From NCBI RefSeq assembly GCF_963921235.1, contig NC_086107.1, forward strand, positions 103,542,001-103,606,000: a DNA stretch of 64,000 bases. The letters run 5' to 3'. The position numbers were made by a program, and so were the translations under genes. The stretch comes from Mobula hypostoma (taxonomy: Eukaryota). Below the pieces are notes generated by a model. The model was not told the DNA's origin. It did no database searches and saw only the letters and a list, made by a program, of their open reading frames with translations. Of the stretch, positions 4,528 to 64,000 are shown piece by piece (position 1 is the stretch's first letter; the number at the start of each line of letters is the position of its first letter).

Positions 4528-7500
4528 AGCGCAACAAATAACACTAGTGCTTCCTTTCGACTGCCACTGACACCTTCTTAGTTCAATGCATTTGTTTCAA
4601 AATGTGAACTAGTCATGCTTGCAGCATTGCTTATCGAGGTTAGTGCAAGAATGTAGTTAAACTATACATTTCCCTGACCTGTATTATGTAAGATAGGTGC
4701 TGTGCCCCGGCTGCGTACTCTAATGAGGTTGCCCTGCAGAATGATTGACTGAATGAGCCAATATTGCCTGGAAGAATGAGCAGAGGTCAAATAGAAACAA
4801 GGGAGGTTGACAGTGTAGGTGCCGAGAGGTTGATTCATGATGGAGGAATCCAGAAGCAGCGGACAGAATAGAGTTGTCCACTTACGACTGAGTTGAGGAG
4901 AATTTTATTTGAGCTGTTGGCCTCAGGCTGGGAAATCCACCCCAGTGCCTTTCCTGGGTTAAACCTGTAGCAAATGTAGCAGCCTTTATTTAAATAAATA
5001 GGAGATATCCGATCTGGGAGAAAGCTAAACACTGTATTTTATTAGGTTTTAATTAATTGACTTGGTGAATGTTTCAGCTTTTTATCTAAGGTTTAAAATG
5101 TTAATTTTTTTGTACCTTCTTCAGTTTTGTTCAAGTGTTCTTGACTGTTTGAATGAGAAAAGAGCAACTTTTCAGTTCTGATGTAAGGTTTTTAACCTGA
5201 AACATTACCTTTGCTCTCCTTCATGGGTGCTGCCCGACCTGATGAGGATATTTGGCACTTTCTGTTTTTATTTTAAATTTCCAGCATTTATTTCTACAAC
5301 TCTGATACCCTACTAGTCCCATTTCTTTTTCTCCTCACAGTCCCATAAACCACCCCACTCCCCAAATTTTTCCACGCACTTACACATAAGGGGCAATTTA
5401 AGGAGGCCAATCTTGCTAAAGCCAACACAACCTTGATGTGGTGCTTCAAGGATATTCTAAGTATGCTTTCAACCAATCCCACACATTTAGTCTGCCAGTA
5501 CCCCTTCCTCAGCATTAACCAGGCTTCCAATTAAACAGCTCAGTCTGCTACCCTAAGTACCTGAGAGATTAAAGACCGCTTGTTTCAATCCTTGTATCAC
5601 AGTAACTTTAAACTACAAGGTTAAGAAATTTTAATTTAAACCAAATAAAGTTTTAAAATGAAAACAAAATCATCCCTTTGCCAATAAGTCCACACTCTGC
5701 AGATACTACAAGCTGAGGAAAGGCAAGAATATTGTTAATACACAAACAAAAGTTGCACATTTCTCTCAAGGTTCAGTACCAGCAAAGCCCTGTTTCTTTA
5801 TAGCAAGTCTGAATCATTCTTGTTCTCCAGTTGCAAAGCACTGCCACCCACCCTATCCCACCAACACCACATTCTTGCAATAAAAGTTGAGGTATTACTG
5901 GGCTACTTTCTTACCGCATCCTTCACCTTTCTATGTCTCACAAGCCAGAGGACCAAAGCAGAACAGTGCACTCAGGTGTATTAGTCCCTCAACATCATCA
6001 TCATCATTATGTGCTGTGTCGGATGACATGGACGATCATGGCCTATCCATAACCATGATTGTTCTTGGCAGATTTTTCTACAGAAGTGGTTTGCCACTTC
6101 TTCAGGGCAGTGTCTTTACAAGTCGGGTGACCCCAGCCATTATCAATACTCTTCAGAGATTGTCTGCCTGTCCTATCACCAGGACTTGTGATATGTACCA
6201 GTTGCTCAAACGACCATCCACCACCTGCTCTCATGGCTTCATGTGACCCTGATTGGGTGGCGGGGGGGGGTGGAGGACAGCTAAGCAGGTGCCACACCTT
6301 GTCCTAGGGTGACCTGCGGGCTCGTGGGGGGAAGAAGTGCCTTAAACCTCCTTTGGTACAGACATAGCTTAACCCCGCCACCCATATTAGTCCCTCACCA
6401 GTTTAAAATGTCATATTCTTCCTGAGAGAAAGCATTGCCATGAAGTAGATATATTAGTGGTGTTCCAGAGGCTTTTCGATAAGCATTGAATAAGTAGACA
6501 TTAATAGAAGGCATTAATTTGCATCATGCTTGACACAGATATTGTGGGCTGAATGACCTCTTCCTAAGCTGTACTGTTCTATAATTAAAGTCACGTTTTC
6601 TCACATATTCTATCTCTCTTTCAAATATTAATTTAAACACCTGTGCATTACTTTTCTGTTTTCTTAAATCTTCCTTTGGAAGAATTTTCCCATTTGAAAT
6701 GTCTAAAACTAAAGGCTATAAATATATTAAAACAAACTAAAGGCCATAAATATCAGGATATAGTTGGAATAATTGAGTCATAAGGGCACAGCAAACGCTT
6801 TGGCCCACTAACCACCAGCCACCCACGTACACTAATATTACACTCATCCCATTTTGTTTTCCCTATTTACAGCCCCATCATCTGCCCCAGATTCTATAAT
6901 TCACCTACTCACTAAGAGCAATTTAAAGTGGCCAATTAATATTTCAGCCTGTCTTTGTGATGTGGGATGAAGCCCACATGGTCACAGGGAGAACAAGCAA
7001 ATTCCACAAAGGCAGCCCCAGAGGTCAGAACTGAACTTGAGTCACTGCAGATGTAAGACTAGCTTTGTCGCTTTCCAGTTGCCAACATATCTGATGGGGA
7101 ATTTATGAGAAACTTCTTTTCGAGCCTCTTACATGTAGAACATGGAGTCCTTGAGGTGAATAGCATAAATGGTTTAATAGGACAGCAAGTACTCGAGTGA
7201 GAATTGATTTGAATGATGAATGAGATGAGGTTGGCCAATGCCAGCTATAGCACAGACTGGGCAGGCCTGTTTGCTTCCGTGTTCTCAGTTCATTATGTAA
7301 AAAGTGAGAGATGGGGAGATATCTGTATGCAAAGTTCAAAGTATATTTATTATCAAAATATGGATACATTATACAATCTTGAGATTTAACTCCTTTTAGG
7401 CAGCCACAAAACAAAGAAACCAAAAAGAACCCGTAAAGAAAAGATGGTCAAACATCCATTGTGCAGAGTGAGAAAAAAACAAATCGTACAAACAATAATT

Positions 7501-7539
7501 AAGCAAATGGACTTCAGAACTGATGTTTTACAAAAGACA

Positions 7540-7690
7540 CAAAGCCAGGCATCACTGTAGCCGGACCAGGCACAGCCTCAGTTCAGTACAGAGCTGAGTA
7601 AATGTCGTGAGGCCACAGACGCAAAGCCAAGCGTCACCGCAGCCGGACCAGGCACAGCCTCAGTTCGGTACAGAGCTGAGTAAATGTTGT
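7540..7690. repeat. Direct tandem duplication of ~82 bp within a LINE 3' UTR remnant
   Basis: caaagcca.gc.tcac.g.agccggaccaggcacagcctcagttc.gtacagagctgagtaaatgt occurs twice. Confidence 0.85.
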
Positions 7691-10600
7691 AGAGCAGCGA
7701 GCAGAGCCAGCTAGAACTGCCCCGTCCCTCACCTCTGGTCCTGACACGCTAACCTTTTCGATCTGGCCCGGCACTTAAACTGCCCAGGCATCAGGTTGTT
7801 CCTCGCCCTCGGACGACTCCGGGGTCTGGATCCCGCCGCATGATTCGGCCCATGCCTGACCTTTCCAATTTGCCTCAAAGTACTTGGTTGTTTTGTTTGT
7901 CGCCTATAAGTAGCTGCTGGGATTCACCAGTGGCATCTTAAACCGAGTCTACTGCCTGAAGTGTGATGCTGGACCTTTGGTAGGTGTAGCGCCTGCTTAT
8001 GAACCTTGGCCAAGGCTCTTTCTTTTTTAAATAAGGGACTTGAATTACCCAATCCATGGTGTATAATTATGTTTGAATTTACCATTTGAAATCCTGTATG
8101 CAAATAGTAAGTAATTTAAATGCAGCTGAAGTTGCTGAAGCAGTTTTTGTCATGATAATACAGCCTTAAAATTGCAGAAGAGATGTATCTTGCATAATAT
8201 ACAGCAGACAGCTGACTTTGGGTGAGATGATTGTAGATCAGCAAAGTAAAGACCCACGTGAACATCACAGAGGAAAATGAGGTTTTTGGTCTATTTTGAT
8301 GCTTAAATTTTGCACAAGCAAAGGTATGGGATAGTTCTGACTACATTGTTCTACCAGTGATAAATGAATCATTAGATCCTTGTGCTCATTTTCATTTAAC
8401 CTGGGGGAGCAATATTCTGGGGTGATTACTTCTTGGTAAACTCCTCTGGTTTACCTGCTTGTTACTAATCATACTGACAAGTAGGATTTGCATTAATAGA
8501 TACTAACAGAAGCATGGCAGTGTCCTTTTCTGAATTAACCAGATAGTAATAAAATTTTTGCAGTCTGGATCAGATAACTACAAGCAGTTTATAACAGGCT
8601 GTTATTAATCTGAATCACGTTGTGGGAGGTAATACTTACTTTGAAAACGGGAAGGTGCTCAAAGGGTCAGGCAAAATCATGTTTCAGGGTGATGACTTTC
8701 CACCTATGAAGCAGAGCATCTCTAGCATTTTATTTCAGATTCCCAGCATCTGGAATATTTTGCTTTCTTTTTTGTTTATAACATTTGTTATAAGTCTAGT
8801 TGCTCTGGTGAATTGCTTAAATCTGGCTACTTCAATCTTCAAGTGGAAATGTAACAAGCCCTACCAAATTGAATTAAGCTCATTAATCTATGGCAATATT
8901 TTGCTCAAATTGGTGATGTACCTGGAGTGATGATTAGAGGTCAAATGAGAAGCAGGCAGGCTTTCCTATAGGAAAGAGTAATCAGTCAACATTTCCGGCC
9001 AAGGCCCTTCTTCAGGACTAAGAAAGAAGGGGGAAGATGAACTTGGCCCGAAGTGTCAACTGTTTACTGTTTCCCATAGATGCTGCCTGACCTGCTGAGT
9101 TCCTCCAGCATTTTGTGCGTGTTGCTCTGGATTTCTTGCATCTACAAACTTTCTCATGTTTATGCTTTCCTATATCTATTTTATACTGATTTACTTGTTT
9201 GAAGACCTATCACACCTCCTCTTAATAGCATCCAAAGTTGGCATCCTTGCAGATTCTCACCAGTTCTGCAGATGAAATGGGCTCCTGACGGTCTTCATAA
9301 AATCTCCTGATCCAATTCATAACTTGTTTGGATTTAAGTTAGCCTGCAAATATCATTCACAACTGAGAATCTCTTTCACAGTTTGTATGCTGACTCTGGC
9401 ATCCTTTGATGCCTTTTAACACTGTTGATGGCATTCCCAATAGGACTTCTAAAAGTTGTGACAAAGGTTGTAAGTTTAACACAATGCTAAGTTTAGGTAA
9501 TCATCTGGTGATGGAATCAAGTTTCACTGAGATGCCTTGTCTTTGTTTTATCATTGGTTCTCGGTCTGGTGGATTCATTCTTCAGGTAAATGTTTGAACC
9601 ACATCTTACAGTAAGAAAACCGGCAAGAGCCAATAAAGTTTCTGGAATAAACTTGGCAGAATGAAACATGGATTACTCTGTCCCTGACCTGCTTACCCCA
9701 TTTTTGCAATCCAGCTGGTTCGGAATAAATTTACTGCTGTTTTGTAAAATAATATTTCGCAACAATTGAATTGACTTGTGGAAGAAGTTTGTAATAAGAC
9801 TGTCTCCCTCCTCCTGTAATTTCAAACCATTTTATTGGTGGGTGGTCGATTTTCAAGGACTAAGTACCAGAGCTGGAAATGAGGCCTATATAAAAAAAAA
9901 CTTCTCAGTTCTTGTACCTGTCTTTCCCAGTTTCAAACACCCAGATTATGTGAAGCCCATACATACAGGGTATTTGGGAGGCCAGTGGTATGGATTTGCC
10001 TGCTGCAGCAATGCTCCAGGCACCTTCTGTTTGGGAATCTGTTCACAGCCACGTTTCCGACTTGCAAACTGAGCAGGTTACGAACAGTTCCCGGGAATGG
10101 GACCCTGTCGTAATCTGTGGATGTGTATTTGTATGCTTGGTTTGTCTGGAAAGTGCAGTCGGTTTGTCTGGAAAGTGCAGTCAGTTTGTAACACACTACA
10201 TGATTCTCCTCAAAACGGTTGCGTTAGGGGCATCACGGTAGCATAGCGGTTAACATATCTCTCTTACTCACTGGTTCAATTCCAGCACTCTCTATAAAGA
10301 GTTTGTACATTCTTCCAGTGACCATGGAGGATAGCTACTATGTATGGATTAGTAGATTAATCGATAACATGGGTGTAATTGAGTGATAGGGGTTCATTGA
10401 GCTGGAAGGGTCTGTTCCTGGGCTGTATCTCTAAATGAAATGAAATAAAATAGCATTTTAAACTGTATTGAGATTTTTCATTTTTACTGCCTTAAGTTTA
10501 ATTGGTGTAAGTTATCAAATACAGACGACACTGCCAAAACTCCTTGTTTCCTCATGCCTGTTATTTTCCATGTGGTTCCTAGCTCCCTAGTTACCTTAGC

Positions 10601-11844
10601 CAGATAAGCCAATTCCTTAGCCGCATGAACTGGTATAGAGCGGTTTTGGTGTTTGGAGTCAGTGTGCTAGCCAAATAAAATCCTGAGAATCCCTTCTGAA
10701 AGGCCAGCACTTGTCACTTCCTGGTCAAGAGCAATTTGGAGTGAACCTTAAATTCGGAGAACCTAATAATAAGCACAAAAATTGTGGTCAACCAAAGAAG
10801 CAGAAAAAAGAAGAATCTTTCTGAGAAACAGGATGACATTACTGAAAAGCAGAACATGTTCACATGCCACTGCGCCATGCTACTGCAGAGGATCAATTCA
10901 GCAATAGGTGAGCTTGGGTCTTCCTTGTGAAGAGGCAGCTTGCTGTGCGATCATTTCTTGAATGTCACAACCAACCACAGTGGCTAATCAAGTTACCATC
11001 CATGGCTATTGATCGCTGAAAGGCAGTATCAATATTAGTGTTGAGTAAGGGTTGGATTTGGCTTTAAGAACCCCACTTGGGAAAATCGTTTGCTAATATT
11101 TGGTGGACTTGGACTTAGAGAAATTCAGAATAGTAAGGTTGAAGTAGAATTGTATGTAATATTTGCAAAGTGGTAGAAGGTTAGATAGCAACACACACAA
11201 AATGCTGGAGGAACTCAGCAGGTCAGGCAGCATCTGTGGAAATGAATAAACAGTTGACATTTCAGGCTGAGACCCTTCTTCAGCACTGAAAAGAAGGGGG
11301 AAGCTGCCAGACGATTAGATAAATAGCTGTTTTATTGCTTGACAAAAGAAATACAAGACTTTCTATAATTTCCCCTCATTTCTTAGCAAGTTCAGCAATT
11401 TCACCACATCCAAGGAACTTGCTTACAGTCATTGCCACCCGTTATCCCCTTTGGAACTGCAGCTGCTGAACTTGGGGCTTGTTGTAACAGACAATTTTGC
11501 ATTTTAAATTTAAAAGTAATGTTCAAGGGTTTTCCCCTCTTGACGTGATGTACAAATGGCAGCGTTATTCATTGTAAATGTTGTGGTTCACTGACCTCTA
11601 TTTGTAAGCCCGTTGTGTCACTCAGTTTTGAGTCTGAACCTTCAATGTGATTTGCAAAATGATGATAATAAAGATTATAGATCAGATGCAATCTCATTAA
11701 ACGGCAAATCAGGCTGAATGGTTTGTTCTAGACAACAGGAATTCTGCAGATGCTGGAAATGGTTTGTTCCAGTATGGTTTTGTTTTTTTTTAGTGTGTAC
11801 GTTTTAAGTTTACAATAAACCTTGGTACTTTAAAGCCTGGCAGT

Positions 11845-12352: not shown

Positions 12353-15300
12353 TTTAACTATACATATTTATTTGGGAAGGTGGTTCAGCCAGTCTCAAAA
12401 TCTGGACCAGTTTCCAGTTTCCCAGGATCCCAAAGCTGTTTTTTTCCACTCTCCTGCATTTCTTCCTCCTGTTGTTTTCAAACCAGTTTTGGTGTCTGTT
12501 ATATTGTAGCCTGTCTCCTTTACCTGCCCGCCTCGTGTAGGCACTAATAGTACCTGCTTCCTTTCTGGTTTTCTTGTTCTAGACGAAGATGATTCCTGCT
12601 CTCAGAGTGTAGCTGCATTAATACAATTTGCTTATATAAAAATCTAGCCCTTGGAGCATAACTTTTGCACTAAATTTGCATCGAGCTAATTTGCTTCAAA
12701 GGAGACATGCATAGTCACTACATTACTTGTGGCATTGTGTATGGCTTGAAACAAGTATCACCCATAGAACAGGAAATCTCTCACTCACTTGATACTATGA
12801 AGCTTGGCTTTTGATCTTGTTGCATTCTGTTATGTTACTTTTCTGAAACTTGGACTGATTCATGGGAAACCTGTATAAATGTAAGAATGTAATTTTCTAA
12901 TAGGTTTTGAATCCTTTTGGTTATAGTTTCTGGTTGCCAGACCACATCTAGAGTTGTTGCATAAAATTTTAGAAGTTCAGTATATGTTTAACTTATTTTG
13001 CATTTCATACCCAGGTAGTTCTTTTGTGTGTAGTTTATCTTTTCTCCAGTGCCGAACTGAACTCAAATTGTAAAATGCTCGTGTCTTGATTGTGTGAGCT
13101 ATATCTCCTCCCCCAAAGGCATTTTGCTGTGCTTTAGGTTTTATGGGCATGCTGAGCACAGGAGTGAAGGGGTGTAGGACAGAGCCTGGTACTCCTGCCC
13201 ATGATGTTACTCATAGCGTGGAGAGGAAGTGCAGCTTTTCTTATGGGCGGAGAAACGGAAGAGAGCGGTGACCACTTCTGCACATTTCAGCTATTGATTA
13301 GGATCGTAAAGTGATACAGCACAGGAGGTTGCCGTTTAATTAACCTGGCCCTAGCTGCCTTATTAAAGGCAACAGTCCATTGGTCCAGCACATCACCTTT
13401 TACAATAATGCAAGTGGTTCCCTTAAAGTATGTATCCAGTTTACTTTTGTTTGGTGTGTTGCAGGCCAAAATAGTTTGTATATTTAAATCTCTAAAACAG
13501 AAACTCCTCCTTTAAGTCCTAAAGCAACTCAGCAGGTCAGGCTGTAAACGGTCAACGCTTTGGGCCGAGATCCTTCAGCAGGACGTTGCTGAAGGGTCTC
13601 GGCCCAAAACGTCAACAGTGCTCTTTTCCATAGATACTACCTGACCTGCTGAGTTCTTCCAGCACTGTGTGTGTGGTGACGTATAAGTGATGTGTTTGCC
13701 TTGGTTCTTGGCCTCTTGTGTTCAACAGTGCCTTGTTCTAGTGTAAGGAGTGGTCATTGTTCATATGTACATTTTGAGATTGGTGCAGTGCTAGAGTACA
13801 AAGTTTGACAGAGGTGTAACTCTGCATCTGATCTTGCTGTATACATCAGGGAGTAGATGATGGGCTGCAGTTATTTGCTGTGGGACGCACACCACTACTT
13901 CCGCAATTCGTAATTAATTTATTACAAATTTCACCTTAAAGGATGGGGCTGCAGTCTGTGAGGTTGTTAGGGGACAAATTTGTTTTTGCAGTGAAAGTTA
14001 TTGAAGTTGTCTCAAACCAGACGTGTGCACAACTAAAGAACCCACTCTTCAAACTGGATCACTTTATAGCATGTAGCTTTACAGCGCCAGTGAACCGGGT
14101 TCATATCCCACCGCTGTACATTCTTCCCACTTCCTCTGGGTGCACTGGTTTCCGAAGGCGTACAGTAAAGGTTAGTAGGTTAATTGGTCATATGGTGCAG
14201 GCTGCTTGGGAACAGAAAAGGCCCATTACTGTGCTATATCGCTAAACACATAAATAAAATGCAGATAGCATTAATGTGTATATGATGGACATAAGGGGAG
14301 ACAAAGTTTTAACCCCTTTGAACCAGTCCACCCATATAATAAGGTTGATCTCTTTATACTTAGGGATACCCCCCCCCCCAGTAACCTTGCTGATAAAAGA
14401 AAGATCTATTTCTATTGTATAAGTTTTCTGTGAATAATTGAAGTTTTGGGAGAAGATGTTCCAGATTTGGAATGAAACGGCATAAGGAATAGCATCAGGG
14501 TGTACAGCCTAATCTAATTTTCAGGCTTAACTCCTGTTTTCATGCCTGAAAACCATAACCACTGATTTCCCCCCACAATCCAAAAACCTGTCTCTGACTT
14601 GGCATTCACAGCTCTCTGTGGTACGCTCTGTGAAAAGGTACTCCCTAAACAACCTGGTTCCAATTTTAAGCTTTTATGTCTCTCTAATCCAATATTTTAA
14701 TTTTTTTGTACCTTTTTAATCATCTTGAACAACTCACAGAGGTCCCCATTATTACTCAAAAGAAGTCAAACAGAAGCTTTGGAACCTACAAAGAAGATTC
14801 ATGGTTTATGAGTTTGTATTTCAATTTAATTTTTGTTTATTTTTGTTGCTGATTTTACGTAGGGCTACGCACTGTAGTGGTGAGTGGCCAGTCTTTATCC
14901 AGACTTGTACACCTCTTGTGTGGGGTTACAACAGGAAGGACTTGTAAAGTCCATTAACTTTACGATCTATAATGAAATGTTATTCTTCCAATGGCAATCC
15001 ATTCTAAAAAAGCCCTGGAATTCCTTCTCTAAAAATTTCTGTCCCTCACTTCCTCCCTTGACAATTCTCTAAAACACCTCACTGTGACAGTCAGTCAATT
15101 GCCCTATCTGCTATCTGGCATGGCTCAGAATCTATTGATTTGATGCATATATAAATTGAATGGTCAGTTTTATTTTGCAAGGTGGAGAAATCTTAATCCA
15201 GAGGTCATAGGCTTAAGCTGAGAGGAGAAAGACTTATTTATTGAGATACAGTGTGAAATAACTGCTTCGAGCCACACCACCCAGCAATCCCCCAGTTTAA

Positions 15301-19000: not shown

Positions 19001-22000
19001 CATTAGCTGCCTACTACATCTCTCCCTATTCAACAAATATTCTTCTGTTCTGTGCACCAAAATGGATGTCTTTATATTCCTCCACATTGTATTCCGTTTG
19101 CCGTGTTCTCATTCTATTTGCCCATATCCCCTACGCCTCTCCTTTCTACCCACATCCTACCGAGTGTACAGTCAGCAGTAAGGATATAAATATAATATTT
19201 GGTGTCTTCAGCCAAATCGTTGATGTGACTTGTGAATGGCTGGGGCCCAAGTACGAGCCCCTTTACTAACCCACCAGTCATAAGCTGCCAGCCTGAGAGG
19301 GAACTGTGCATGCCCATTCTTTGCTTTCAATCCAATAACCAGTTCTGTGTTTACGTCAGAACAAGCCGTTAATTCTGAGCTCTAGCCTTGTTGTTAAATC
19401 CCCCCTGCGGAACTTCATAGAAAACCTTCTAAAATGCAAGTACGTAATTTCCTCATTTTTCTCTCATCCATTATTCACTTCCTCAAAAGAGGCCCACAGA
19501 TTAATTAAACTGAAATCCTGCTTAAATTCATGTTGTCTGCTTAATTCTACAAGATGACTATAGATTTTAGCACATCTATTATCACTCTTGGGCTAACAGG
19601 TTGGTAGTTCCAATTTTTGTCTGTCTCACCTTTCTTATCTAGTGGGGTTACATTTGCTTTCTTCCTTTTCATGTGATCGTCCAGAATCTATGGAACTACA
19701 GAAGGTCAATACCCAGTGTGTTCATGGACTCTCAAGCCATCTCTCAAAACAAGTGGAAATTATCGAGACTCTGGAATTTGTCCGTTTTCTAGCTCACCAT
19801 CTTCTCTAGAATTCATCATCATCATTATTATGTACCATGTCATATGTTGTGGGCACTCATGGTCCATGACCTATGATAGTTCTTGGCAAATTTTTCTACA
19901 GAAGTGGTTTGTCATTGCCTTTTTCTGGGTTGTGTCTTTACAAGACGGGTCACCCCAGCCATTATCTTCAGAGATTGTCTGCCTAGTATCAGTGGTTGCA
20001 TAACCAGGACTTGTGATAACCAACTGCTCATGCAACCATCCACCAGCTGCTCCCACGGCTTCACGGGACCCTGTTCGGGAGGCTAGGCAGGTGCACACCT
20101 TGCCCAAGGGTGACCTGCAGGCTAGTGGAGTGAAAGAGCACCTGACACCTCCTTTGTGGCTACGTACAGCTCCAACACCATATACAAGTTTGCTGATGAT
20201 GCCACTGTTGCGGGCTGTATCAAAGGCGATGATGAATCAGATTGAAAATTTGGCTGAGTGGTACTATGACAACAATCTCTCACTCAGTGTCAATAAGACC
20301 AAGGAACTGATGTAGCCTTCAGGAAAGGGAAACCAGTGGTCATGAACCAGTACTCATCAGAGGATCAGAGGTAGAGAGGGTCAGGGTCAATAATTTTAAA
20401 ATTCCTGGGTGTCACTATCTTTCCTGGACCCATCATGTAAGTGTAATTGCAAATAAAGCACAACAGCATCTCTACTTCCTGTAGAGAATTGGCATGTCAT
20501 CAAAAACCTTGGCAAAACTTCCATCAAGGTGTGGTGGAAAGTGGCTGACTGCCTGCTCTTCCTTCTTCCCTTTCTCCCATGGTCCACTCTCCTCTCCTAT
20601 CAGATTACTTCTTCTCCAGCCCATTACCTTTCCCACCCACCTGGCTTCACCTATTACCTTCTAGCCGGTCCTCCTTCCCCTCCTCCCCTTTTTATTCTGG
20701 TGTCTGCCCCCTTCCTTTTCACTCCTAAAAGTCTCATACCAAAATGTTGACAGTTTATTTATTTCCACAGATGCTGCCTGATCTGCTGAGTTCTTCCATC
20801 ATCTTGTTTGTGTTGCTTTGTATACCTATGCTAGTTATAAACACTGATCATTCACCCAGTTAACCACAGCTGATCCCCTCATACCTGATAGTTTCCTTTG
20901 CTTAGATTTAAAAGAATCAAGGTATTGATGGGCAGGTGAGAGGATAAATTGCAGAGATGCAGAGAAATAGGGAGAGGGGGAATGGGATTGATGAGAATAT
21001 TCTATTGGAAGCCTCTGGGCTGAATGGCTTCCTTCTGTTTTAATCATTAAATACACAAAATTGTAAAATCACAAATTGGCCAGCAAGTTCAGAGGAATAA
21101 GACATGCAGCAGGCATTGAGAATCCCCAGAACCTATTCTTTAGTTGCACCACATCATACAATAACATATTGACATCAGTTCCCTTTGTGATCAGTTCCCC
21201 TATAGAACCTCTAAGTCACCCCAAAAGTTAAAGTTGGTAATTTACAACCATGGTGTAATAATGAATTGCTAATTATTCATGCAGAACCCATCAGCGTCTC
21301 CATTCTGGGTCACAGATTCTCAATTCTCTATATTGTTCCTGTTGTTTTCTCTATATTATTGATGGTTTTAAACATGTCAGGTTTTAATATTTCATTAGGC
21401 TTCCTTTTGTTACCATCAATGTATTCATTTTCTTTATTTTTCCTTTTTTTACCCCTAATTTGACTCTGATTTACCATGTTCCTCCCAACAGTTTTTCTTC
21501 CTGAGTGTGAAATCTCATTGGTTGGGGAGGTAGACTGTTGGGCCCCATTGCTTGCCCTGCTGCTCTGTTATCATATTTCCAGCAAATTAGACCAGAAATT
21601 TTCTTTAGCTGAAGACTGCTGACACGGTCCCACAGGATCCAGTACGATGTTCCTATCTGATCACCTCACTCTAGACCCATCTATTGAAAAGTGCCAGAGG
21701 AATGAAGTGGGAGAGTTTTAGGTCAGAATTTGTACCTCTGCTTTGTGCGGAGGAAAGAACAAATGCTGATTGTGGAGAGAGTACTTCCACTGGAGTATTG
21801 GCACATTTATTGGTCGATGTGCACTTGTGAATTGCTGATGTGCTGTGAGCTGGCAATTCTCAAAGGGAGCGTAGCCCAGCAGGACCACGCTGCTGGGAAG
21901 GCTAGCATTGTATTACAGGCTGTGCTTCACACTTACAGCAGGACTGTGTGTGAAGGAGTAATACTTAAACCTTCTCAGCACAGCTGCTAAATAACCAGTT

Positions 22001-43000: not shown

Positions 43001-46000
43001 TATAGATGCTGCCTGGCCTGCTGCGTTCACCAGCAATTTCTATAAGTATACTAAATAGTTAGATTAAAAATAGTGCTAAACAAAATTAATATAAATATTT
43101 TATTTATTAATGAATTAATTATGTAAATGATTTAGATGTGAATGTACATGACAGGATTAACAAGATTCTTCTAAGTTAGAGGGTCTTGATAGTAAAGCAG
43201 CTTATAAGGAATTACAAAGAGGTCTTATCACAAACAAGAGAAAGTCTGCAGATGCTGGAAATACAAGCAACACACACAAAATGCTGGAGGAACTCCGCAG
43301 GCCAGGCAGCATCGAGGGAAAAGAGTGAACAAAGGGAAGATTTAAACTTCTTCAGGATAGATATCCCTGGAAGAGACTTTGCAGTTTAGTCGGGTAGACG
43401 AGTCCTGATGTAGGGTCACAGCCCGAAACATCGACTGTTGACTCTTTTCCATAGATGCTGCCTGACCTGCTGAGTTCCTCCAGCATTTTGTGTGTGTTAC
43501 AAAGAGGTGTTGATCACTTAGGGAGCTGGGCGGAGGTAAATGAATTTCAACTTAAATAAGGGTGAGTTGAAGCATTTTGGATAGTCCAGCCAGAGTAGCA
43601 CCTATGCAGTGAATATTAGGGCACTGACAACGTTATGAAACAGGGAGACCTGGGAGTACTAGTGTACAGTGTGATGAAAGCAGCCACACAAGTACGCAGG
43701 CAGGTGAAGAAGGGATTTATCACACTGGCCTTCAGTTAGGGCATCAGCTTTAGGAGTAGGATATTATGCTGCAGTCATATTAAATGGCTGGTGATTTGGA
43801 ATATAGTGAACAGTTTTGGTTAGCCTGTTAAAGGAAAGACATTGCCAAACTAGAGAGAGTGCAGAAGAGACTTACTAGGATTCTGCCTGGACTGGAAGGC
43901 CTGAGTTATAGGGAGAGGTAGGCTATCCAGGATCTTTACTCATTAGAGAGAAGGAGAATGAGAGTGACCTCAAGTTTATAAAATCATGAAAAGTAAGGAT
44001 AAGGTGATGGTCATCGTCTTTTCCTCAGTGTTCGGGATTTATTTATCACATCGGCATGTTAACACACATTTAAGGGTGTGCTGAGAACAGCTCGCAAGTG
44101 CCACTCCAGGCTGGGGTTGAAGCTGAAGCTCTGGTCACTAATATGTAGTATATTGACAAAACAAATTTAACCTCCTCCTTGAGTGCTTGAGGGTCATCCA
44201 GATTGTATTTCCCGATTCAGCAAAGTCAGCCCAAGATGACACGCGACAAGAACCAGCGGAACAAGAAGCTGAAGGAGCCAAAGTCCCGGGTGAAGAAGCT
44301 CAAGTACCACCAGTACATGCCGCCAGACCAGAAACTGGAGAAGGCCACCCTGCCTCTGGACACTGCCTACTCCAAACTGCTCCAGCAGCAGCAGCTCTTC
44401 CTCCAGCTCCAGATACTGTGCCAGCAGCAGCAGCATTACAACTATCAGACCATCCTGCCCGCTCCGCCAAAGTAAGTACCCGGCCACGGCCGGAGGTGTT
44501 CCACTCCTGCCGTTTATCGGTCTCTCCAGCACTCTTCAGAGTGTTCAGAGATACTGTGCCTCGGAGCCATTTCACAGGCATTCCATTGCCATTCTCTGTC
44601 CATACTGGGCTGGTTACCTTACCAGAGCATTACGTCAGGCTCATGCCTTCTACCCGATGGGGGGGGGGCGGGGTGGTGGGAGAGTCAGGGTTCTTGTCTC
44701 TGGTTCGGACAGGATATAAGGAGGCCTGTCAATCAGCACATCAGCACTTTCTGGACAGCCGATTTTGAGCACTGTGAAATACAAGAGCACTCGACAGTCT
44801 AAAGCAAGGGTTCCCATCCTGGGAGTCCACCAACCCCTTGCTTCATGGTATTGGGTCATGGCATTAAAAAAAGGTTGAAAACCCCTGGTCCAAAACAATA
44901 ATAGTCAGAGCCTGTGGTGGCAGAGAAGATGATACCAGGTGGGAGAGAGTCTGACCACAGACTGAACTATAGATTGAACCTCTGCTCCCTCACCAAGTTC
45001 CCAGTTTGTAAATGTTAAGGAAAAGACCTGAAGAGACAGTGACCAGTGGGAAGACTTCGCTTGGTCGCTGCAAGTGTGATACGTCAGTGGCAGAAAGGAA
45101 TTGTGGCTGCTTATTGGCATAAGGTATCTTCCCATCATTCGGTATCTTCTGAAAACTTGTAGTCTCCTCTTTACTTTTTGGAGTGACCTTGTGCACACTT
45201 CCCTCCACAGGCATTTAACACAGGTCACTATAAGGCAGAGGTCCCAACCTGGGGTCCAGAGACCCCTCAGTAAATGGTAGGGGTCCATGGTGTAAAAATG
45301 GGTTGGAACCCCTGCTATAAAGAATAAGCAGTGCTTTCTCCAACATACTGACCCATCTCGCACCAGAGTCCAAGCAGTGTGTACCTGTCCATCACCCGCT
45401 GTCCCAGATTGTTAATATGATGTGGTAGCTCAGGTTACATTACAGTAAAGGAGCAGAATTTGGCCCATCGAGTCTGCTCCGCCATTCGACGATGGCTCAT
45501 TTATTTTCCCTTTCAAGCCCATCCTCCTGCTTTCTTCCCATAACCCTTACCACCTTCGCTAATCAGAATCAGGGTTATTATCACCGGCGTGTGACGTGAA
45601 ATTTGTTAACGTAGCAGCAGCAGTGCATTGCAATACGTAATATAGAAAAAAAAACAAAACAATAATAATAAATAAATAGCTAAATCAATTACAATACATG
45701 TATATTCAATAGATTAAAAATTGTGCAGAAAACAGAAATACTATATATTAAAAAAAGTGAGGTAGTGTCCAAGCATTCAATGTCCACTTTAGGAATCGGA
45801 CAGCAGAGGGGAAGAAGCTGTTCCTGAATCGCTGAGTGTGTGCCTTCAGGCTTCTGTATCTCCTACCCGATGGTAACAGTGAGAAAAGGGCATGTCCTGG
45901 GTGCTGGAGGTCCTTAATAATGGACGCTGCCTTTCTGAGACACTGCTCCTTGAAGATGTCCTGGGTACTTTGTAGGCTAACGCCCAAGATGGAACCGACT

Positions 46001-49000: not shown

Positions 49001-52000
49001 TGGTGGTCACCTCTGCGGCCAAGCCGGCTGTCCCCGTCTCTACCCCTCCGGTGTCGCCGGCGCCCTCTGACCGCTCGGTGCAAAGTATGGACGACACCAC
49101 CCCGCCCGAGTTGCCAGCCGAGCCTGGCCGGTCCTCGCCCATGCAAGTGGTGTGCAAGGAGGAGATCCCCTGCCTCAACGGCGTGAGCAGCCACATCATG
49201 CTAGCGCCCAGCGCCATCCGCGGCAGCGGCCCGGAGGGCAAGGACCCGCAGGCCACCATCAAGGACCGGATGCTGCAGGAGAAGGACAAGCAGATCGAGG
49301 AGCTGACCAGGATGCTGAGGCAGAAACAGCAGCTGGTGGAAGCCCTCCGCCTCCAGCTGGATCAGGAGAAACGCACACAGCAACAGCAGCAGCAGCCCGC
49401 CCCCTCCCTGCTCCCAAACCCACCCGTTTCCCGGGACTCCATCGCCGTCAAGCAAGAGAACCTGCCCTCCAGCTGCCCCCTCTCGGGCAAGTCCAACCCA
49501 TCTGGCCCACATCCCAGCCAAGCCAAGCCCCCCAGGACGAGCCCCAGCCCCACCGGCACTGCCGGGCCCAACCCGCTGCCAATCAAGACGGTGATGGTGA
49601 AGCAGGAAGGAGGCGGGGGCGGCTGCCAGCAGCCAGCACCAGCCATTCTGCTGAGCTCATCGCAGCCAAGCCGGGTGACCACCGGCCTGCTGAGGACAAT
49701 CGCCCAGGCACAGACCCCTGGTCTGCTGACAAACGGAGCCGGCACGCACATCCTCCTCACCATGACTCCGCAGAAGACAGACGTGGGAAGTGCACCTCCC
49801 CCTGCGAGCTCCACCAAGGATCAACCGACAACACAGGTACTCACTGATAGGCTTGAGGTGAGGCGGGGAAGATTTAGAAGTGGCCTGAGGGACAACTTCT
49901 TCCGCACAGCTGTGGGGGTTAACGGTGATCACTGGAGCACATCGTAACCCAAAAACACCCAGCACTTACTGAATGGAAACACTGTGGGGACAGCGGTTTA
50001 TTTCGAGAGAAAAGATAAAGATTAGCTTTATTTGTCACATCTACATGGAAGCATAGTGAAATGTGGCATTTGTGTCAAAGCATATCAGCAAGGATTGGTC
50101 TTGGGGCGCCCCGCAAGTGTCGTCACATTTCTGGCACCACTGTAGCATGCCCACAACTCACTGACCCTGACGTTTGGAACTTGGGACATGACCCGGGGGG
50201 TGGGGGGTTGGGGGACATACAATCTCCTTACAGAGAATGGCGAGAATGGTTCCAATCCATAATCGCTGTAAAGCGACACACTAACAACTACTCTGCCATG
50301 CTGGCTGACAGATAAGAATCCTAAATCTGCTTTTATTGCCTGCAGCCTGACAAAGTCTGCAAAAACAGACTGAGTTAGGTAGGCGACTCTACCCACTGTG
50401 AGTCGCTACAGTGGGGACTAGCTGAGACAAATAAGTATGGAGGTAAGCCAGGCACAACCAAGAGGGATAAAGGAAGGAAGAAAATGCTGAGTGAGAAATG
50501 AAGCAAGGTGGGCGGAAGTTCAAGAGGTGCATAAACAGCGTAAATTGGGATCTTCGGTCTCTTCTGTTGGAAATTGTCAAATGAGTATGCACTTCTCAGC
50601 TAGCAGTCGAATTGTTGATGTCCTGATGAAGGGTTTCGGCTAGAAACGTTGACTGTTTTCTCTTTTCCATAGATGCTGCCTGGCCTGCTGAGTTCCTCCA
50701 GCATTTTGTGTGCGTTGCTTCAATTTCCAGCATCTGCAGATTTTCTCTTGTTTGTTGATGTAGGTTCTGTTTTATGCCGAAAGAGGGCAGTACTGAGCTA
50801 ATGCCCCAATGGTGGGAATGCAGTGCAACACCACAAGATGCTGGAGGAACTCAGCAGGCCAGGCAGCATCTATGGAAAAAAAAAGTAGTTGGGGTTTCAG
50901 CCCAACACGCCGACTGTACTTTTTTTCCTTAGGTGCTGCCTGGCCTGCTGAGTTCCTCCAGCATTTTGTGTATGTTGCTCGGATTTCCAGTATCTGCAGA
51001 CTTTTTCTTGTTTATGCAATGCAACAGCTGCTTACACTGAGATTAGTGTTTGATCGAATGAGTGATTTGTAAAATAGTCCTGCAATAATTAGTAATTGTG
51101 GAATAAGGTGTATTTTATGCAACGCACACAAAGTGCTGGAGGAATTCATCAGGTCAGGCAGCATCTATGGAAATGAGTAAACTGTTGACATTTCGGGCAG
51201 AGTCTCTTCTTCAGGACTGAGAAGGAAGGGGGAAGATGCCAGAATAAAAAGGTGGGGGAGACGGGAAGAGGCTTGCTGGAAGGGGATAGGTGAAGCCAGG
51301 TAGGTGGGAAAGGTCAAGGGCTGGAGAAGAAAAAATCTGATAGGAGAGGAGAGTGGACAGTAGGAGAAAGGGAAGGAGGAGGGGACTCGGGTGAAGTGAC
51401 AGGCAGGTGAGAGTAAGTGAAAGGTTAGAGTGGGGAATAGAGGAAAGATGGGGGTTGGGGGCGAATTTGTTCACTGGAAGGAGAAATCGATACTCATGCC
51501 ATCAGGTTGGAGGTATCCGCACAGAATACTAGGTGTTGCTCCTCCACCCTGAGAGTGGCCTCATCTTGGCACAAGAGGAGGCCACGGATTGACACGTCAG
51601 AACGGGAATGGGAGTGGGAATTAAAATGTTTAGCCACTGGGAAGTCCTGCTTGTGGCAGATGGTATGGAGGTGCTCGATGAAGCGGTGCCCCAAATTACA
51701 ACCGGTCTCACGAATGCAGAGGAGACCACGTCGGGTGCACCGAACACAAACAGCAGTTTCACAGGTGAAGTGTTGCCTCATCTGGAAGGATGGTTTGGGA
51801 CCCGAATGGCGGTGAGCGGAGAGGTGTATGGGCAGGAGGTGCTCAACGAAGTGGTCCCCCGATTTACGATGGATCTCGCCAATGTTTTATGCTTTCTTGC
51901 TCATGTGCTGCTGTACCCAGAGTATATTGCACCTATGCTCAAAAATCATACTGATATTCCTGTGTAAGGAACATACACAGTCTTAAAAATGGGATTTGTA

Positions 52001-55000: not shown

Positions 55001-58000
55001 CAACCCACGCAGTCACGGGGTGAACCTACAAACTCCTTACAAGCAGTGGTGGGAATTGAACCCGGGTCGCTGGTACTGTAAAGCGTTGTGCTGACCACTA
55101 CGCTATCATGTTGGTTGTGGATGGTTGATGAAACTCTTGCTGCTGTCCAACAACCACCGCCTGCAACCGGCAAACCATGAGAACCCCACCCGTTATGTCT
55201 AACTGCCACCAAGATCTGAGCTAATCTGACTTACTTACAGATATGAGCGGAATCGGCTACAGTGAAAGTTGAGTTTATACTTCATGGAGCAGAAATATTA
55301 GAAAAATTCTCTTCTGTTTGTCACACAGTGCATCAAAACATACTGTGTTATTTGTGTCAGTGACCAACACAATCCAAATGTGTCCTGGGGTGGGGGGTGG
55401 GGGGTGGGGGGGGAGCAGCTCACATGTGTCACCGTGCTTCTAGCACCAACGTAGCAAGTCCAAAACTTAATAACCCTAACTCATACTTCTTTTGGAACGG
55501 AGAAAACCCACACGGTAATAGAAAGTCAAACAAGACCACACTATAGCAATTCTTGAGGTTTATTGCCTTACAGACAAGTGTTTTGGAGCATAATCACTAA
55601 ATCATGGGATTTAGTTTGCGTTAATGATCATCCCTTCCTTGGGGATGATGTCAAGGGACCAAGTTTGATGACATCTTCCTTGTTTGTAGGTGGTGTTGGA
55701 TTAGGATGTAGAATCATTTACTTTCTTTTCTTGTATTTTAACTTCCCTATGCAAGTTCATAATTTTTATATGACCCCCTTTATCGTATGTGTAATTGTTC
55801 AGTGCTATTTTTAGTAATTGTAGTATAACGTATTCTGTATTTTCTAGAAGTTCCAGGGTTTCCTGCACCAAATGTCACACTACTGGAGTCTGGCTATTTC
55901 ATAAGTTACATCTTATCACTGGAACATGTTCTGTCTGTAGTCTGTGTATGAGACGACCATGTCTTTTTCTCTTTAACCTTTTGTTCATTCTTTGTCTTGT
56001 AACACACTGAACAAAATGCTGTAACCACCAAGTTTAATGCCTTGTTGTTGACTTCTGAGGTCCTCCAGATCAAAATCATCTGATCCAAATTGGTCTTCCA
56101 AGAGAAGGTGGTATGAGGGAGTGGGAATGGGAATGAGAAATGCCTTGGTTTCATCAGTATTCTCCAGCAACAAATTTTGGAGAAGCATACCAATGTGCAT
56201 TTCCCTGATCACAGTCCGTGCACCATTGCCACCCTGATTGGTCACTTTATTTCCCCTTCTCCTTTTCATAGAGGAACTTGTGTCATCACGTCATCTCCCC
56301 GTCGCCTCCACCTCACTGTGAAACAAGGAAGTTCTGTGGCCAGAGAACCTGGCCCAGTCAACATGCTGTCTTTTCTGTCTTGGTTTGTGACTGATGGTCT
56401 CACTTTTGTTTTACCATTTTCAGGAGAACTCCAGAAGCCAGGAGATGGATGATTTGTTTGATATCCTCATTGAAAGTGGAGGTAAGATAACAATGGTAGA
56501 ATACTGCTTTTTGCTGGAGTTTGATCATTTATATCATGCTGCCGAAACCAGTAATGTTGACTGCAAGCAACACACACAAAATGTTAGAGGAACTCAGCAG
56601 GTCAGGTATGGGGGGGAATAAACAGTCAGTGTTTCGGACCAGGTTCTTCAGTGGTTCAAATTAATATCAGAGAATGTGTACAGTTTACAACCTGAAATCT
56701 GTGCTCCTCACAGACATCCACAAAACAGAAAAAACCAAGAAGAGTGAATGACAGAAAACGGTAGAACCCCAAAGCCCCCCCATGCATAAACAGCAGAAAA
56801 AGCACCAACCCCCCCACTTGCTGCAGAAAAAGCACCAACCCCCCTCCCACTTGCTCCAGAAAAAGCACCAAACCCCCCCCACTTGCTCCAGAAAGAGCAC
56901 CAACCCCCCCACTTGCTCCAGAAAAAGCACCAACCCCCCGCCACTTGCTGCAGAAAAAGCACCAACCCCCCCCACTTGCTGCAGAAAGAGCACCAACCCC
57001 CCCACTTGCTCCAGAAAAAGCACCAACCCCCCCACTTGCTCCAGAAAAAGCACCAACCCCCCCACTTGCTGCAGAAAGAGCACCAACCCCCCCACTTGCT
57101 CCAGAAAAAGCACCAACCCCCCCCACTTGCTCCAGAAAAAGCACCAACCCCCCCACTTGCTGCAGAAAGAGCACCAACCCCCCCACTTGCTCCAGAAAAA
57201 GCACCAACCCCCCCACTTGCTCCAGAAAAAGCACCAACCCCCCCCACTTGCTCCAGAAAAAGCACCAACCCCCCCACTTGCTGCAGAAAGAGCACCAACC
57301 CCCCCACTTGCTCCAGAAAAAGCACCAACCCCCCCACTTGCTCCAGAAAAAGCACCAACCCCCCCCACTTGCTCCAGAAAAAGCACCAACCCTCCACCAC
57401 CCATCATGCAAGCAAAGGCAACACCAAACAGATCGTGATCTCGAGTCCATCAAAAACTACTGTCCATCCCAACAGTTTGACATCTCAGGCAGGCTCTCTC
57501 GCTCACTAGCGAGGGAGAGAGAGATATCGTTCCTGCAGCAGACGAGGGGGGAGACCAACAGCTTCAAAATGGAAGGGCGCCTCTTTAGGACTGAGGTGAG
57601 GAGGAATTTCTTTAGCTGGGGGTGGTGAATCTGTGGAATTCATTGCCACAGATGGCTGTGGAGGCCAAGTCGTTGGGTATATTTAAAGTGGAGGCTGATA
57701 GGTTCTTGATGAGTAAGGGTCTCAAATGTTACGGGGGAAAGGGAGGAGAATGGATGTGAGAGGGTTAATAAATCTGCTATGATGGAATGGCGGAGCAGAC
57801 TATAGGCCAAATGACTTAATTCTGCTCCTATGTCTTATGGTCTTAACTTTCCTCCCCTCACATCCTGTTGCACCATTCTTTTGACACTGACATCCTCCAA
57901 TCTTCCATGTTTGCAGAAGATCCTGTCTTCCTGTGGGAGCCCAGGTGCTGAACTTCCATTATTTTCTCAGTCAGCTTTCAGGAGAGACCATGCATAGCCA

Positions 58001-61100: not shown

Positions 61101-62433
61101 AGTTGAAGGCAGAGAGTACATCATGCTTAAATCACTATTGCAAGCTAGTGGCCAAGTCATCCTTTCTAGTAGCCAAAAGTGAAGTTACTGTGGTCTTTAT
61201 ATAACCCAGAAAGGGGTTGAGTGTCATTGCTTTGGCAATCAGTTCTTTGTTATTTTTTTAATTGTATGTTCTCATTGACCATAAGCTGCGTTTCAGTACA
61301 GCTCTCTATAAGAGCTACCTGTTTGATTCTTTTGTAGAAGGGTTGAGAGAGTTAACGTTGCATCCTGGTGTATACAGAATCCAGAGCGAGCGGAGGGGGA
61401 GCATTTGAAATGGGGTTGGGGAAATGATTTGAAGGTTCAAAAATTGCTGATTTGATCAAAGGTACAGAAGCCCACAACCTTCCAAACACCACCTCCCACA
61501 CCAAAGTAGCAAAGGGTGGGTTTTATTGAAAGTCTCAAATCCCACTCCCAGTGAACCTGATATTCATCTAACTTGCACTGAAGAGCCATGTCTGAGAGCT
61601 TGGAGGCTATTAAACAGTTAATTTCTCTCCACCTCCCCCAACCAAAATTGATACATTTTTGTCCAATCAACTTTATCCATACACTGTTAAAATAGATGAT
61701 TTATTTTTTGAGATACAGTGTGGAATACGCTATTTTCAGCCTGAGCCACGCCACCCAGCAATCCCCGATTTAGTCATAGCCTAATCCTGGTTCAATTTAC
61801 AATGACCAATTATTCTACCAACCGGTACGTCTTTGAATTGTGGGAGAAAACAAAAGCACCCAGAGGAAACCCACGTGGTCACGGGCAGAATGTACAAACT
61901 CCTTACAGAGAGCAGTGGAAATTGAATCCGGGTCGCCTGTACTGTAAAGTGTTGTGCTAACCACACCACTGTTGATGTTGCTGAGTTGGAAAACTTGGCG
62001 AGTTCTGTACCTGTGCATTGAGCCTTAGTTTTGGTGAGCCAGTGCAAACCAAGTGACATATCTGGACATGGAACCTCCATACTGGAAGCCACCTCCTCTT
62101 CCCTAGCACAGAAGTGGTGAGCACACTTTCTGATGGTGCTTTGTGATTCTGAGAACACTCAAGAGACACGGCATGCTGAGCAAAATTTGAAGGGGCTGAG
62201 CTGAGTTCTCTCTCACCGTCATTTCATTTTATCCATCCCTAAAAAAGTTCTCTGACCAGAATGGTCTCCAGCCAGGATGGATCTTGTTAGCAAATCCCTG
62301 AGTGTATGTTGAATGTTGCCACCTGAACTCAGTTGGTGAATGGAGTTTGTATATTGTGTATTGTCCTGTCAATTCTGGTGTTAAGTCGTCATCAAACCCT
62401 TTGATCATAGGTAGCTCGGGTGGTTGATGGCTA

Positions 62434-62699
62434 GGTTGAGTTGTTCTTTGATATTGGCAATCCATTTGCAGACGTTTCATAACCATTCGAGGAGACACCA
62501 TCAGTGCGCTGTTCACTTGTGGTGTGTCCTGAATGCTTAGCCTTTATATACATATCAATCAGCTGACTGGTTGTCATTACAGAAACTCAGTTGCGTGGCC
62601 ATGCAACTAATCAGCGATGAGAACCCCTGCCTATGTTCCAACTGAGTTTCCATAATAACGTTTGCAAATTGGTTGTCAGAATTGGAGAACAACTCAACC
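62434..62699 (-). mobile_element. Second PLE-type terminus family; inverted arrangement with hammerhead-like motif (62468-62507)
   Basis: Reverse complement gca-CUGAUGG-...-GAAACGUC-ugc; inverted ends ggttgagttgttct / agaacaactcaacc. Confidence 0.55.
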
Positions 62700-64000
62700 A
62701 ACCCTTAATGACTCCAAATAGGGGTGTGAAGCGGGTTATAATGATAGAGTTTTACAGTTAGAATTAGTGTCGCCAACTAATGGCCACTCGGGAGACCATG
62801 GCAGCACAACTAGCCCTGCCTCACAGATCCAGGGACCCAGGTTTGGTCCCAGTTCCTAAAACTGGTTGTGCAGGGTTTGAATATTGTCCCCCCCCCCCCA
62901 CAACCCTTGTGCTTTAGTTTCACACGCTCGTGCTACTAAGTTACTTGACTCCTGGAAATTGCCACGAGTGTATCAAGGTGGTAGGTGGAAATAGGATCTG
63001 TGTGAGCAAGGCCAAACTGAGTGAGGTAGTGGGACTGGTGGAATTCAGGTGAGAGTTTTCATTGTTAGATCAAAGCCACCTCCTGTAGTGTGTGAGGTGT
63101 TTTTAAGATAAATAAATGGAGAAAAACGTGCAGTATATTGGTGAATCCGCTGGAATGATGCTAAGCCATAAAATTAACGAAAAAAATCTAACGTAGGTTT
63201 ACACACCTATAGAAATTGATCACTGGATCATAATGCAATTCTGATACTGGAGTTGGGTTTTTAGCTGCAATGCTGTACTTGATCCAAGACAATCTTAAGA
63301 CCCAGTAGGTTCAACCTGGGGTGAAGTAGTCTCAGCTATTTCAGTCACTGCTCTGGATTCCTAGAAACCACAACACAAAACAATCAGAGGATTAGGAGCT
63401 CTGTCCCACTTCTCTAAAGTTGTTCTTCCTTTTTTTGCAAGAAGAATGAGCCCTATTTGAGGCTTGGTTGAGTGTATTACATAGTTTGGTCTGACCTTCC
63501 TGGTCTTCCTCCCTCATCTCCACCAATGGCTGCAAGACCTTCTGCTGTCCGTGGCCCCAAGCTCTGGACTTCATGCCTTGCACTGCTTTACCTACCTACA
63601 TACTCTGAGGCACTTCTGCAAATCTGCCTCTGACCCTTTTGATCACCTGCCCTGATTTCATTTTGTAGCTTGGTACCTAATGTTACCCAATCACCTCTGT
63701 GTTAAACTTGATGCAGATGGTAGAACTGAGTGGTATTTTGTCTGTTTCCTACTGTCATGCCCTTGAAGTTGGCTTCTGTGGACCTTGCTCACAGTCAGAG
63801 GTAACTGTGATGATTTTGATTGTTACCTGAGTTTAGACCTGCTCGTCGCCTGCAAATGCCTCTATCTCTTATTACTTTCCTTGGTATCCTGGAGTTACAG
63901 AGAACTATGCTGCACAATCCTTTGTATTGCTAGCACTGCTGTTGGATTGATTTGTCCTTAGATGCACTTTCAAGCAGGGATCACTGGGTCAAAGTTCAAA

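Follow-up and report, generated by a model that had tools for sequence, protein, structure and literature searches.

Hammerhead ribozymes carried by the pseudo-LTRs (pLTRs) of metazoan Penelope-like elements (PLEs) have been noted to include duos on opposite strands, 100–700 bp apart, and most of the motifs, minimal hammerheads dispersed singly, were ascribed to truncated PLEs in 2014, according to passages of Cervera and de la Peña (PMC4209133). Solo pLTRs devoid of duplications have been regarded as recombination or deletion products in the portions available of Craig 2021, Arkhipova 2013 and Schostak 2008.

The insertion process has been described for the anole Poseidon element PAc. The accessible text of Frangieh 2024 (PMC11167929) indicates that the tail is set by two sites of RT initiation and that both strands are extended. 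Hammerhead cleavage is not needed, nor do its products serve as the inserted template, which must include the first 172 nt of the ORF. Furthermore, the anole hammerhead requires protein help to fold.

Non-LTR retrozymes are presented, in excerpts of Cervera 2020 (PMC7229834) and Li 2026 (bioRxiv 10.64898/2026.07.22.740005), as head-to-tail repeats of 150–450 bp with at least two complete ribozymes and a circular RNA. In a literature search whose coverage left most subscription papers outside, neither the present PLE family in cartilaginous fish nor a fixed 5´ start of PLE short copies was found.

The Module and Its Parent Element

The window, the whole 64-kb stretch of DNA analysed here, contains 23 HMM matches to a ribozyme-bearing module of ~130 nt. 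The same model finds 240 matches across 1.18 Mb of sampled DNA and none in a reversed 584-kb control. This corresponds to roughly 650,000 matches per genome, and at least 4.4% of the sampled DNA matches the young PLE. An earlier note on this DNA had named 13 module positions, all of which contain the module. Of the 23 matches, 12 belong to six head-to-head pairs as their arms, which makes insertion events fewer than copies. Its end coordinate for the family, 62700, finds no support, since the last module match ends at 56650 and no module was found beyond that point when the window was scanned by HMM and tblastn.

The module forms the pLTR end of a PLE that carries an endonuclease (EN+). In locus L071, a frame of 1036 open codons encodes RT, followed by a cysteine linker and then the endonuclease. 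The Pfam RVT_1 match to this frame (E=2e-5) is below the curated cut-off, a GIY-YIG-type motif at the C-terminus was read directly from the sequence, and PF01541 is found in many of the 526 homologues. The linker that separates RT from EN is visible as Cys-x4-Cys-x2-Cys. A cysteine-rich linker at this position is the Neptune criterion, common to Nematis too, in the passages of PMC3846280 and PMC8557442; judged from the linker motif rather than from a tree of named references, the family's placement suggests a Neptune-type clade.

Tandem pLTR-ORF-pLTR units of ~3.5 kb were found at 14 of 20 fetched young loci, the other six being dropped from the pLTR comparison as truncated or unparsed. The 5´ and 3´ pLTRs of one element resemble each other more than random pairs do (25% vs 44% mismatch, p=0.0002) and are not identical.

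Module-Bearing Loci in the Window

The GIY-YIG remnants that had been placed upstream of the module were recovered at three loci by tblastn, using a natural 1016-aa frame as the query for PLE coding remnants. These 5´-truncated PLEs comprise a forward-strand copy at 27399..28239, with a broken linker/GIY-YIG region (27399-27878), a pyrimidine-rich 3´UTR, the module from 28107 and a tail; a forward-strand copy at 38565..39035, with the final 38 endonuclease codons (38565-38678), 3´UTR and the module from 38938; and a reverse-strand copy at 51116..51897, with a GIY-YIG remnant (51897-51480), 3´UTR and the module from 51218. The tail is absent from the last two, and the third has an 8-bp exact duplication. 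In the window, duplications were counted only if exact and of at least 8 bp.

Among the short copies, the tailed solo module at 50619..50754 (forward) starts at the hammerhead 5´ edge and has a damaged helix II, with a 10-bp exact duplication overlapping its first bases. An old diverged solo module at 5174..5288 (forward) also starts at the hammerhead edge. The copy placed by the earlier note near 20725 does match the module (20627..20820, forward), but it has ~100 nt of PLE 3´UTR in front and its catalytic core is deleted.

The head-to-head pairs differ in their arms. The pair at 43229..43501 has a 12-bp exact duplication; its forward arm (43401-43501), which is untailed, has its start at the edge of the hammerhead, and its reverse arm is tailed and contains a 54-nt piece of PLE leader/ORF start (43385-43332). 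At 42111..42321 the duplication is of 9 bp, exact, and the reverse arm starts at the hammerhead edge, and at 42846..43039, a pair of the younger subfamily type, the reverse arm is tailed. Both arms start within helix II at 50808..51014, where the forward arm is tailed, and at the hammerhead core at 13514..13678, where the cores are mutated. The pair at 8953..9162 combines a reverse arm with ~19 nt of 3´UTR, a tailed forward arm and an 8-bp duplication.

The remaining matches are a reverse-strand short copy keeping ~23 nt of 3´UTR (11187..11310) and a short decayed module (56561..56650, reverse), both untailed; a tailed module 3´ half (2446..2523, forward) and a fragment (26695..26735, reverse), both lacking the hammerhead; and a tail-only insertion of 31 nt with a 12-bp exact duplication (11730..11760, reverse).

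Ends of the Copies

The 5´ ends of short copies are non-random, with 85 of 240 copies starting at module columns 1-8, within 8 nt of the hammerhead 5´ edge. Given this pile-up, the short copies are not random 5´-truncations. In the young subfamily, 16 of 52 starts lie at -2..+9 and none at -26..-3, a density of 0.037 per nt at the edge vs 0.0016 upstream (~20 times). The starts are spread across ~10 nt, not at a single base; the young ones form two small groups, one per AG dinucleotide, and six of them precede helix I by 1-3 nt. Starts at the cleavage site (columns 32-36) account for 4 of 240 copies, and no young copy (0/52) starts at columns 30-38. Among ORF-bearing young copies, 3 of 29 start at columns 1-4 and 15 of 29 reach upstream of the 5´ boundary.

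The sequence upstream of short copies resembles background DNA. Pyrimidine-rich flanks occur in 7 of 53 non-inverted short copies, which may be misclassed long copies. A spliced exon 1 was rejected: the few bases apparently shared upstream of short copies in the first 30 loci reflect query bias and, at 50619, the target duplication.

The 3´ ends fall into two clusters ~35 nt apart, one around columns 100-107 and one around 134-138, and short copies are insertions of ~100 or ~135 nt, with an optional tail of ~35 nt. With the 5´ pile-up, both unit boundaries are thus defined. The sample holds 32 head-to-head (inverted) pairs, and 21 of the 22 classifiable ones combine a tailed and an untailed arm (p=1.1e-5).

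Duplications of at least 8 bp flank 13 of 51 short solo copies (2% null), 19 of 32 inverted pairs (3% null) and 9 of 58 long copies (nulls 2-3%); those of the short copies are 8-17 bp long. The figures for solo copies and pairs bear out the claim that short copies inserted independently and have target-site duplications of their own. Among 11 copies in which a duplication was found, it abuts or overlaps the start in four.

Condition of the Hammerhead

The identification of the module as the pLTR of a PLE, bearing a type-I hammerhead of the minimal form, stands at the level of the sequence motif: the majority base per column of the young subfamily yields a complete minimal type-I motif, including the palindromic helix-III positions. 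A search against Rfam gave no hammerhead family match, either for the window or for an intact copy of the young subfamily. Among the 15 motif-spanning window matches, one of which (43356) is over-extended, core boxes are kept in five, and none combines the core with a helix I of at least 4 bp and a helix II of at least 3 bp. In the sample, the hammerhead is intact in 25 of 170 copies (6/96 short vs 19/74 long).

Covariation was not significant at any of three helix pairs (p values of 0.13, 0.43 and 1.0), with unpaired control columns correlating more; dead copies are ill suited to such a test, and the "ancient" copy group was heterogeneous. The natural young motif folds at -30.3 kcal/mol as a dimer vs -11.0 per monomer, in a fold that does not reproduce the exact catalytic one. 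In short copies the hammerhead is likely a decaying passenger.

Origin of the Short Copies

The short copies are probably pLTR-end insertions written by the PLE's own protein from its own RNA, the shared start probably corresponding to the 5´ end of that RNA. As extrapolated from the available text of PMC11167929, the endonuclease would nick both strands and RT would start inside the RNA at the two tail positions. The further route that we propose, from RNA start to joining or jump, is slightly less likely than not. Transcription would begin at an A, initiator-like in its context and immediately ahead of helix I; the match is to an initiator consensus of 6-7 nt, and the matching bases can also be read as a splice acceptor. 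Primed on the pLTR copy in the leader, a short cDNA would run off the RNA end and be joined in as a solo copy, or as an inverted pair if both strands were primed. Alternatively, the cDNA would jump to the 3´ pLTR and continue into the 3´UTR and ORF.

Several observations count against this run-off model. In D. virilis the start lies ~120 nt farther upstream than the equivalent point, with an intron between the two. The ~10-nt spread of starts also weighs against it. A test for a cap-derived extra G gave G before the start in 26% of cases vs ~22% in the background, which shows no clear excess. Since 15 of the 29 ORF-bearing copies pass the boundary, the model needs either the jump or a read-through RNA. 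Non-CpG differences between 5´ and 3´ pLTRs at module sites, found by eye in 4 of 14 elements, may argue against a strict in-cis jump. Contigs of four sequencing runs, which cannot show RNA ends, speak neither for nor against the model: loose ends lie at boundary A in three, but divergence of older long copies from the young reference would be expected at this base too.

More speculatively, and rather doubtfully, the short copies could be fossils of a strong-stop-like PLE intermediate, primed on the mRNA leader and run off a fixed RNA start at the hammerhead 5´ edge, with longer copies and partial tandems arising only if the cDNA jumps to the 3´ pLTR. Dimeric pairing of the two hammerheads might help such a jump, the hammerhead acting as an end-joining scaffold, not a cutter. 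If true, this would explain pseudo-LTRs.

A structural stop is an unlikely alternative that keeps the PLE origin and has all cDNAs primed at the 3´ pLTR, with RT ending at the still-paired helix-I 5´ strand (e.g., in a dimeric fold with the other pLTR) or at the start of the pyrimidine tract. The boundary does coincide with the helix-I 5´ strand, long copies would need no template jump, and both the dimer stability of the young motif, despite its inexact catalytic fold, and the dependence of the anole hammerhead on protein help are in its favour. However, a monomeric helix predicts 3´-side ends (columns ~26 or 39), where few ends lie; helix I has just 5 bp, and the six young starts upstream of it do not fit.

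It is still less probable that a splice acceptor forms the boundary, with the template spliced or processed at the AG just ahead of the core and the cDNA ending at the junction. Old-type long copies carry a pyrimidine tract and AG at -4/-3 (97% and 91%), the D. virilis intron ends at the helix-I 5´ end, and the AG-linked grouping of young starts would agree with splicing. Against this, the expected shared upstream exon is absent among short copies (a 10-nt match in just 1 of 1770 pairs), bases upstream of the AG are kept in many of them, and duplications abut or overlap the start in the copies mentioned above. No GT..AG joint at the boundary was seen among the 15 joints listed from the run contigs (104 further), a result neutral on splicing.

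The earlier note had proposed a separate, retrozyme-like non-autonomous family. On a tree of 105 of the 240 copies (137 columns), short and long labels change 39 times, compared with a mean of 35 after shuffling, at least 11 changes are required by the starred branches, every subfamily is common to both, and no short-specific clade was found. No module array appears among the 13 TRF rows of the window. The proposal is not supported, given the mixing in the tree, the lack of a tandem habit, starts that avoid the cleavage site and the absence of intact hammerheads in the window. That short units are independently transcribed, cleave themselves in dimeric form and are mobilized in trans by the PLE protein, in a retrozyme- or SINE-like manner, is highly improbable: the defined 5´ boundary, own duplications, very high copy number, reported derivation of non-LTR retrozymes from pLTRs (one chondrichthyan genome included) and a single degenerate head-to-tail array of ~88-nt hammerhead-bearing units in 1.18 Mb speak for it, but copies are solo or head-to-head, flanks are not carried along between copies, and few short copies keep the motif.

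Comparison with Known Systems

The PLE family itself is ordinary, being abundant and having a minimal hammerhead of a kind already known; what stands out is the start that many copies have in common. The end statistics bear on how PLE pseudo-LTRs, inverted ends and tails are made and on the role of the hammerhead. The boundary at the ribozyme edge, with none at the cleavage site, and the near-obligate tail asymmetry provide predictions for the in vitro PLE system.

Like the motifs in the passages of PMC4209133, those described here have a minimal core, an extra base after A9, a short helix I and palindromic helix-III surroundings. Helix II is of 3-4 bp, in contrast to 7-8 bp in Schistosoma, and U replaces C11.1 in 67% of the young subfamily, unlike in those motifs; the same passages mention neither cartilaginous fish nor a fixed 5´ start. 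The element shares RT, cysteine linker and C-terminal GIY-YIG with Neptune-type EN+ PLEs, as well as partial tandems, an inverted 5´-truncated pLTR, an optional tail of 30-40 bp on one of the ends, short duplications and heavy 5´ truncation, as described in parts of PMC8557442, PMC3846280 and PMC2377424. Unlike the solo pLTRs in the portions of those reports, the short solo copies are flanked by duplications of their own and favour a particular start.

PAc belongs to a different PLE clade, and the available text of PMC11167929 does not deal with the 5´ boundary of genomic copies. Finally, the copies resemble non-LTR retrozymes, as characterized in excerpts of PMC7229834 and bioRxiv 10.64898/2026.07.22.740005, in being non-coding, pLTR-related and endowed with a type-I hammerhead, but they differ in being solo or head-to-head, with mostly dead cores, and in tracking an autonomous element.

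Abundance of the Module and Its Parent Element

Scanning for the core motif and running BLAST from six seeds recovered the hammerhead-bearing pLTR module of the Penelope-like element (PLE) at every position named in the earlier note. A profile HMM built from 36 genomic copies matched 23 times in the window, 134 times in 584 kb (0 in the reversed control) and 240 times in 1.184 Mb comprising the window, 100 kb flanks and stretches at round coordinates on many contigs (control, 0). The 191 matches in 1.02 Mb outside the window extrapolate to ~650,000 modules for the 3.48-Gb genome. Twelve of the 23 window matches are arms of six head-to-head pairs, and core and helices are both intact in 0 of the 15 window matches spanning the motif. 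An Rfam search of the window and one intact copy did not detect the hammerhead motif even in the latter.

The copies appear to be situated in and around introns of a SAP-domain host gene (PF02037, E=2e-11; acidic C-terminal stretch), whose plus-strand exons at 48709-49944 and 58534-59109 we take to resemble myocardin-related transcription factor. The window also contains a 30-bp minisatellite unrelated to the module (56794-57392; ~20 copies, 93% match) and RT-region remnants of another non-LTR retrotransposon at 30410-31132 (+) and 46075-46632 (−), with RVT_1 and PF09004 matches.

The window's endonuclease remnant had 133,909 first-look candidates genome-wide. At one sampled locus (L071), a 1036-codon open frame comprises RT, cysteine linker and endonuclease, its closest homologue being a Chiloscyllium protein (71%). 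Under the linker criterion in passages of PMC8557442 and PMC3846280, the cysteine linker points to a placement toward the Neptune group. Young copies, 98-99% alike, have the usual partial-tandem layout (3'UTR, hammerhead module, tail, short leader and ORF, in order), and two pLTRs lie ~3.5 kb apart in 14/20 fetched loci. A young element with an internal deletion (L057, ~4140-4660, +) reads module, tail, leader and ~180 nt from the ORF start, joined to the final 70 nt of the 3'UTR and a second module ~385 nt downstream.

No Support for a Separate Family of Short Copies

The suggestion of a separate non-autonomous, retrozyme-like family is not supported: short and long copies are mixed on a tree of 105 copies drawn from the 240 (54 long, 51 short; score ≥70, module spanned; only 137 columns). 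The tree needs 39 label changes, where shuffled labels average 35, and at least 11 are required by well-supported branches. No common upstream sequence was found among short copies. Intact motifs are rarer in them (6/96 vs 19/74 long), and none of three helix pairs tested showed significant covariation, dead copies being a poor test set. Tree mixing, rarer intact motifs and the near-absence of tandems count against the retrozyme reading.

The sole retrozyme-like array in 1.18 Mb is degenerate, with four to five tandem ~88-nt units of PLE 3'UTR end plus degenerate hammerhead (L170, ~3800-4150, −). Most modules of the young subfamily, for example those of L113 and L216, have replaced the conserved G10.1-C11.1 pair (67% of all young copies have T), so the ribozyme of this recently active lineage may be weakened.

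Insertion, 3' Ends and Inverted Pairs

Short copies insert with target-site duplication, have two 3' ends and a preferred 5' start, show tail asymmetry when in inverted pairs, and track the subfamilies. Duplications of ≥8 bp (nulls 2-3%) flank 13/51 short solo copies, bearing out the earlier note's claim that several have their own; they also flank 9/58 long copies, 19/32 inverted pairs and 2/21 copies starting at columns 13-50. Short copies thus represent genuine insertions.

Module 3' ends cluster near columns 100-107 and 134-138. This is the optional tail of PMC11167929, explained in passages of that paper by RT starting at two internal sites. Of the 32 inverted pairs, 21 combine a tailed with an untailed arm and one is tailed on both arms; pairs untailed on both arms were absent, and 10 are unclassed (asymmetry in 21/22 classifiable pairs, p=1.1e-5). 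Inverted arms vary widely in size, since that of a large head-to-head insertion (L072, 3156-6574) holds ~410 ORF codons. At 43332-43385 (−) of the window, the arms of one inverted pair, set within a 12-bp duplication, enclose a 54-nt leader/ORF-start piece, which is the mark of a template jump close to the leader.

A Preferred 5' Start

Starts fall at columns 1-8, the helix-I 5' strand, in 85 of the 240 copies; starts upstream occur at 0.06-0.36 per nt, and the cleavage-site region accounts for just four. The HMM edge and divergent UTRs might exaggerate this count, so the pile-up was tested in two ways. Upstream pyrimidine content equals background in short copies (0.46-0.56) and is 0.72-0.98 in long ones, leaving 7/53 possible misclassings among the short. 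Alignment of 52 young copies to a close reference places 16 starts at -2 to +9, none at -26 to -3 and 26 further upstream; the hazard is 0.037 per nt at the boundary, compared with 0.0016 on its upstream side and 0.0036 on its downstream side (P=1e-11; P=3e-5 counting only nine non-inverted starts). Among ORF-bearing copies, 3/29 start at columns 1-4 and 15/29 reach beyond. The boundary bases resemble an initiator. The fixed start is the main value of the finding, as a test of PLE replication.

By analogy with the anole system, where passages of PMC11167929 describe both strands as primed at internal sites on uncleaved RNA whose template must carry the first 172 nt of the ORF, both strands would be primed at internal RNA sites. 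Priming may therefore take place at the pLTR's leader copy, where the template already carries these 172 nt, and would copy only 100-135 nt before the RNA ends. A structural stop at the boundary is a rival source of the fixed start, as is a splice junction there. Under leader-copy priming, the longer copies would arise through a template jump to the 3' pLTR or from read-through RNA. The two pLTRs of one element are more alike than random pairs (46/182 mismatches vs 44%, p=0.0002; 15 columns, three of them at the 3' junction), yet in 4 of 14 elements they differ at non-CpG sites, which neither confirms nor excludes the jump.

Comparison with Known Systems

Further PLE and retrozyme context is found in parts of PMC8557442, PMC2377424, PMC3846280, PMC7229834 and PMC6155905. 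Passages of PMC4209133 report weak dimer cleavage by minimal hammerheads, attribute thousands of singly dispersed ones to truncated PLEs and describe duos on opposite strands; both arrangements are common to those PLEs and the Mobula hypostoma copies. Retrozymes, as defined in part of bioRxiv 10.64898/2026.07.22.740005, are tandems derived from pLTRs, whereas the short copies here are non-tandem save for one degenerate array.
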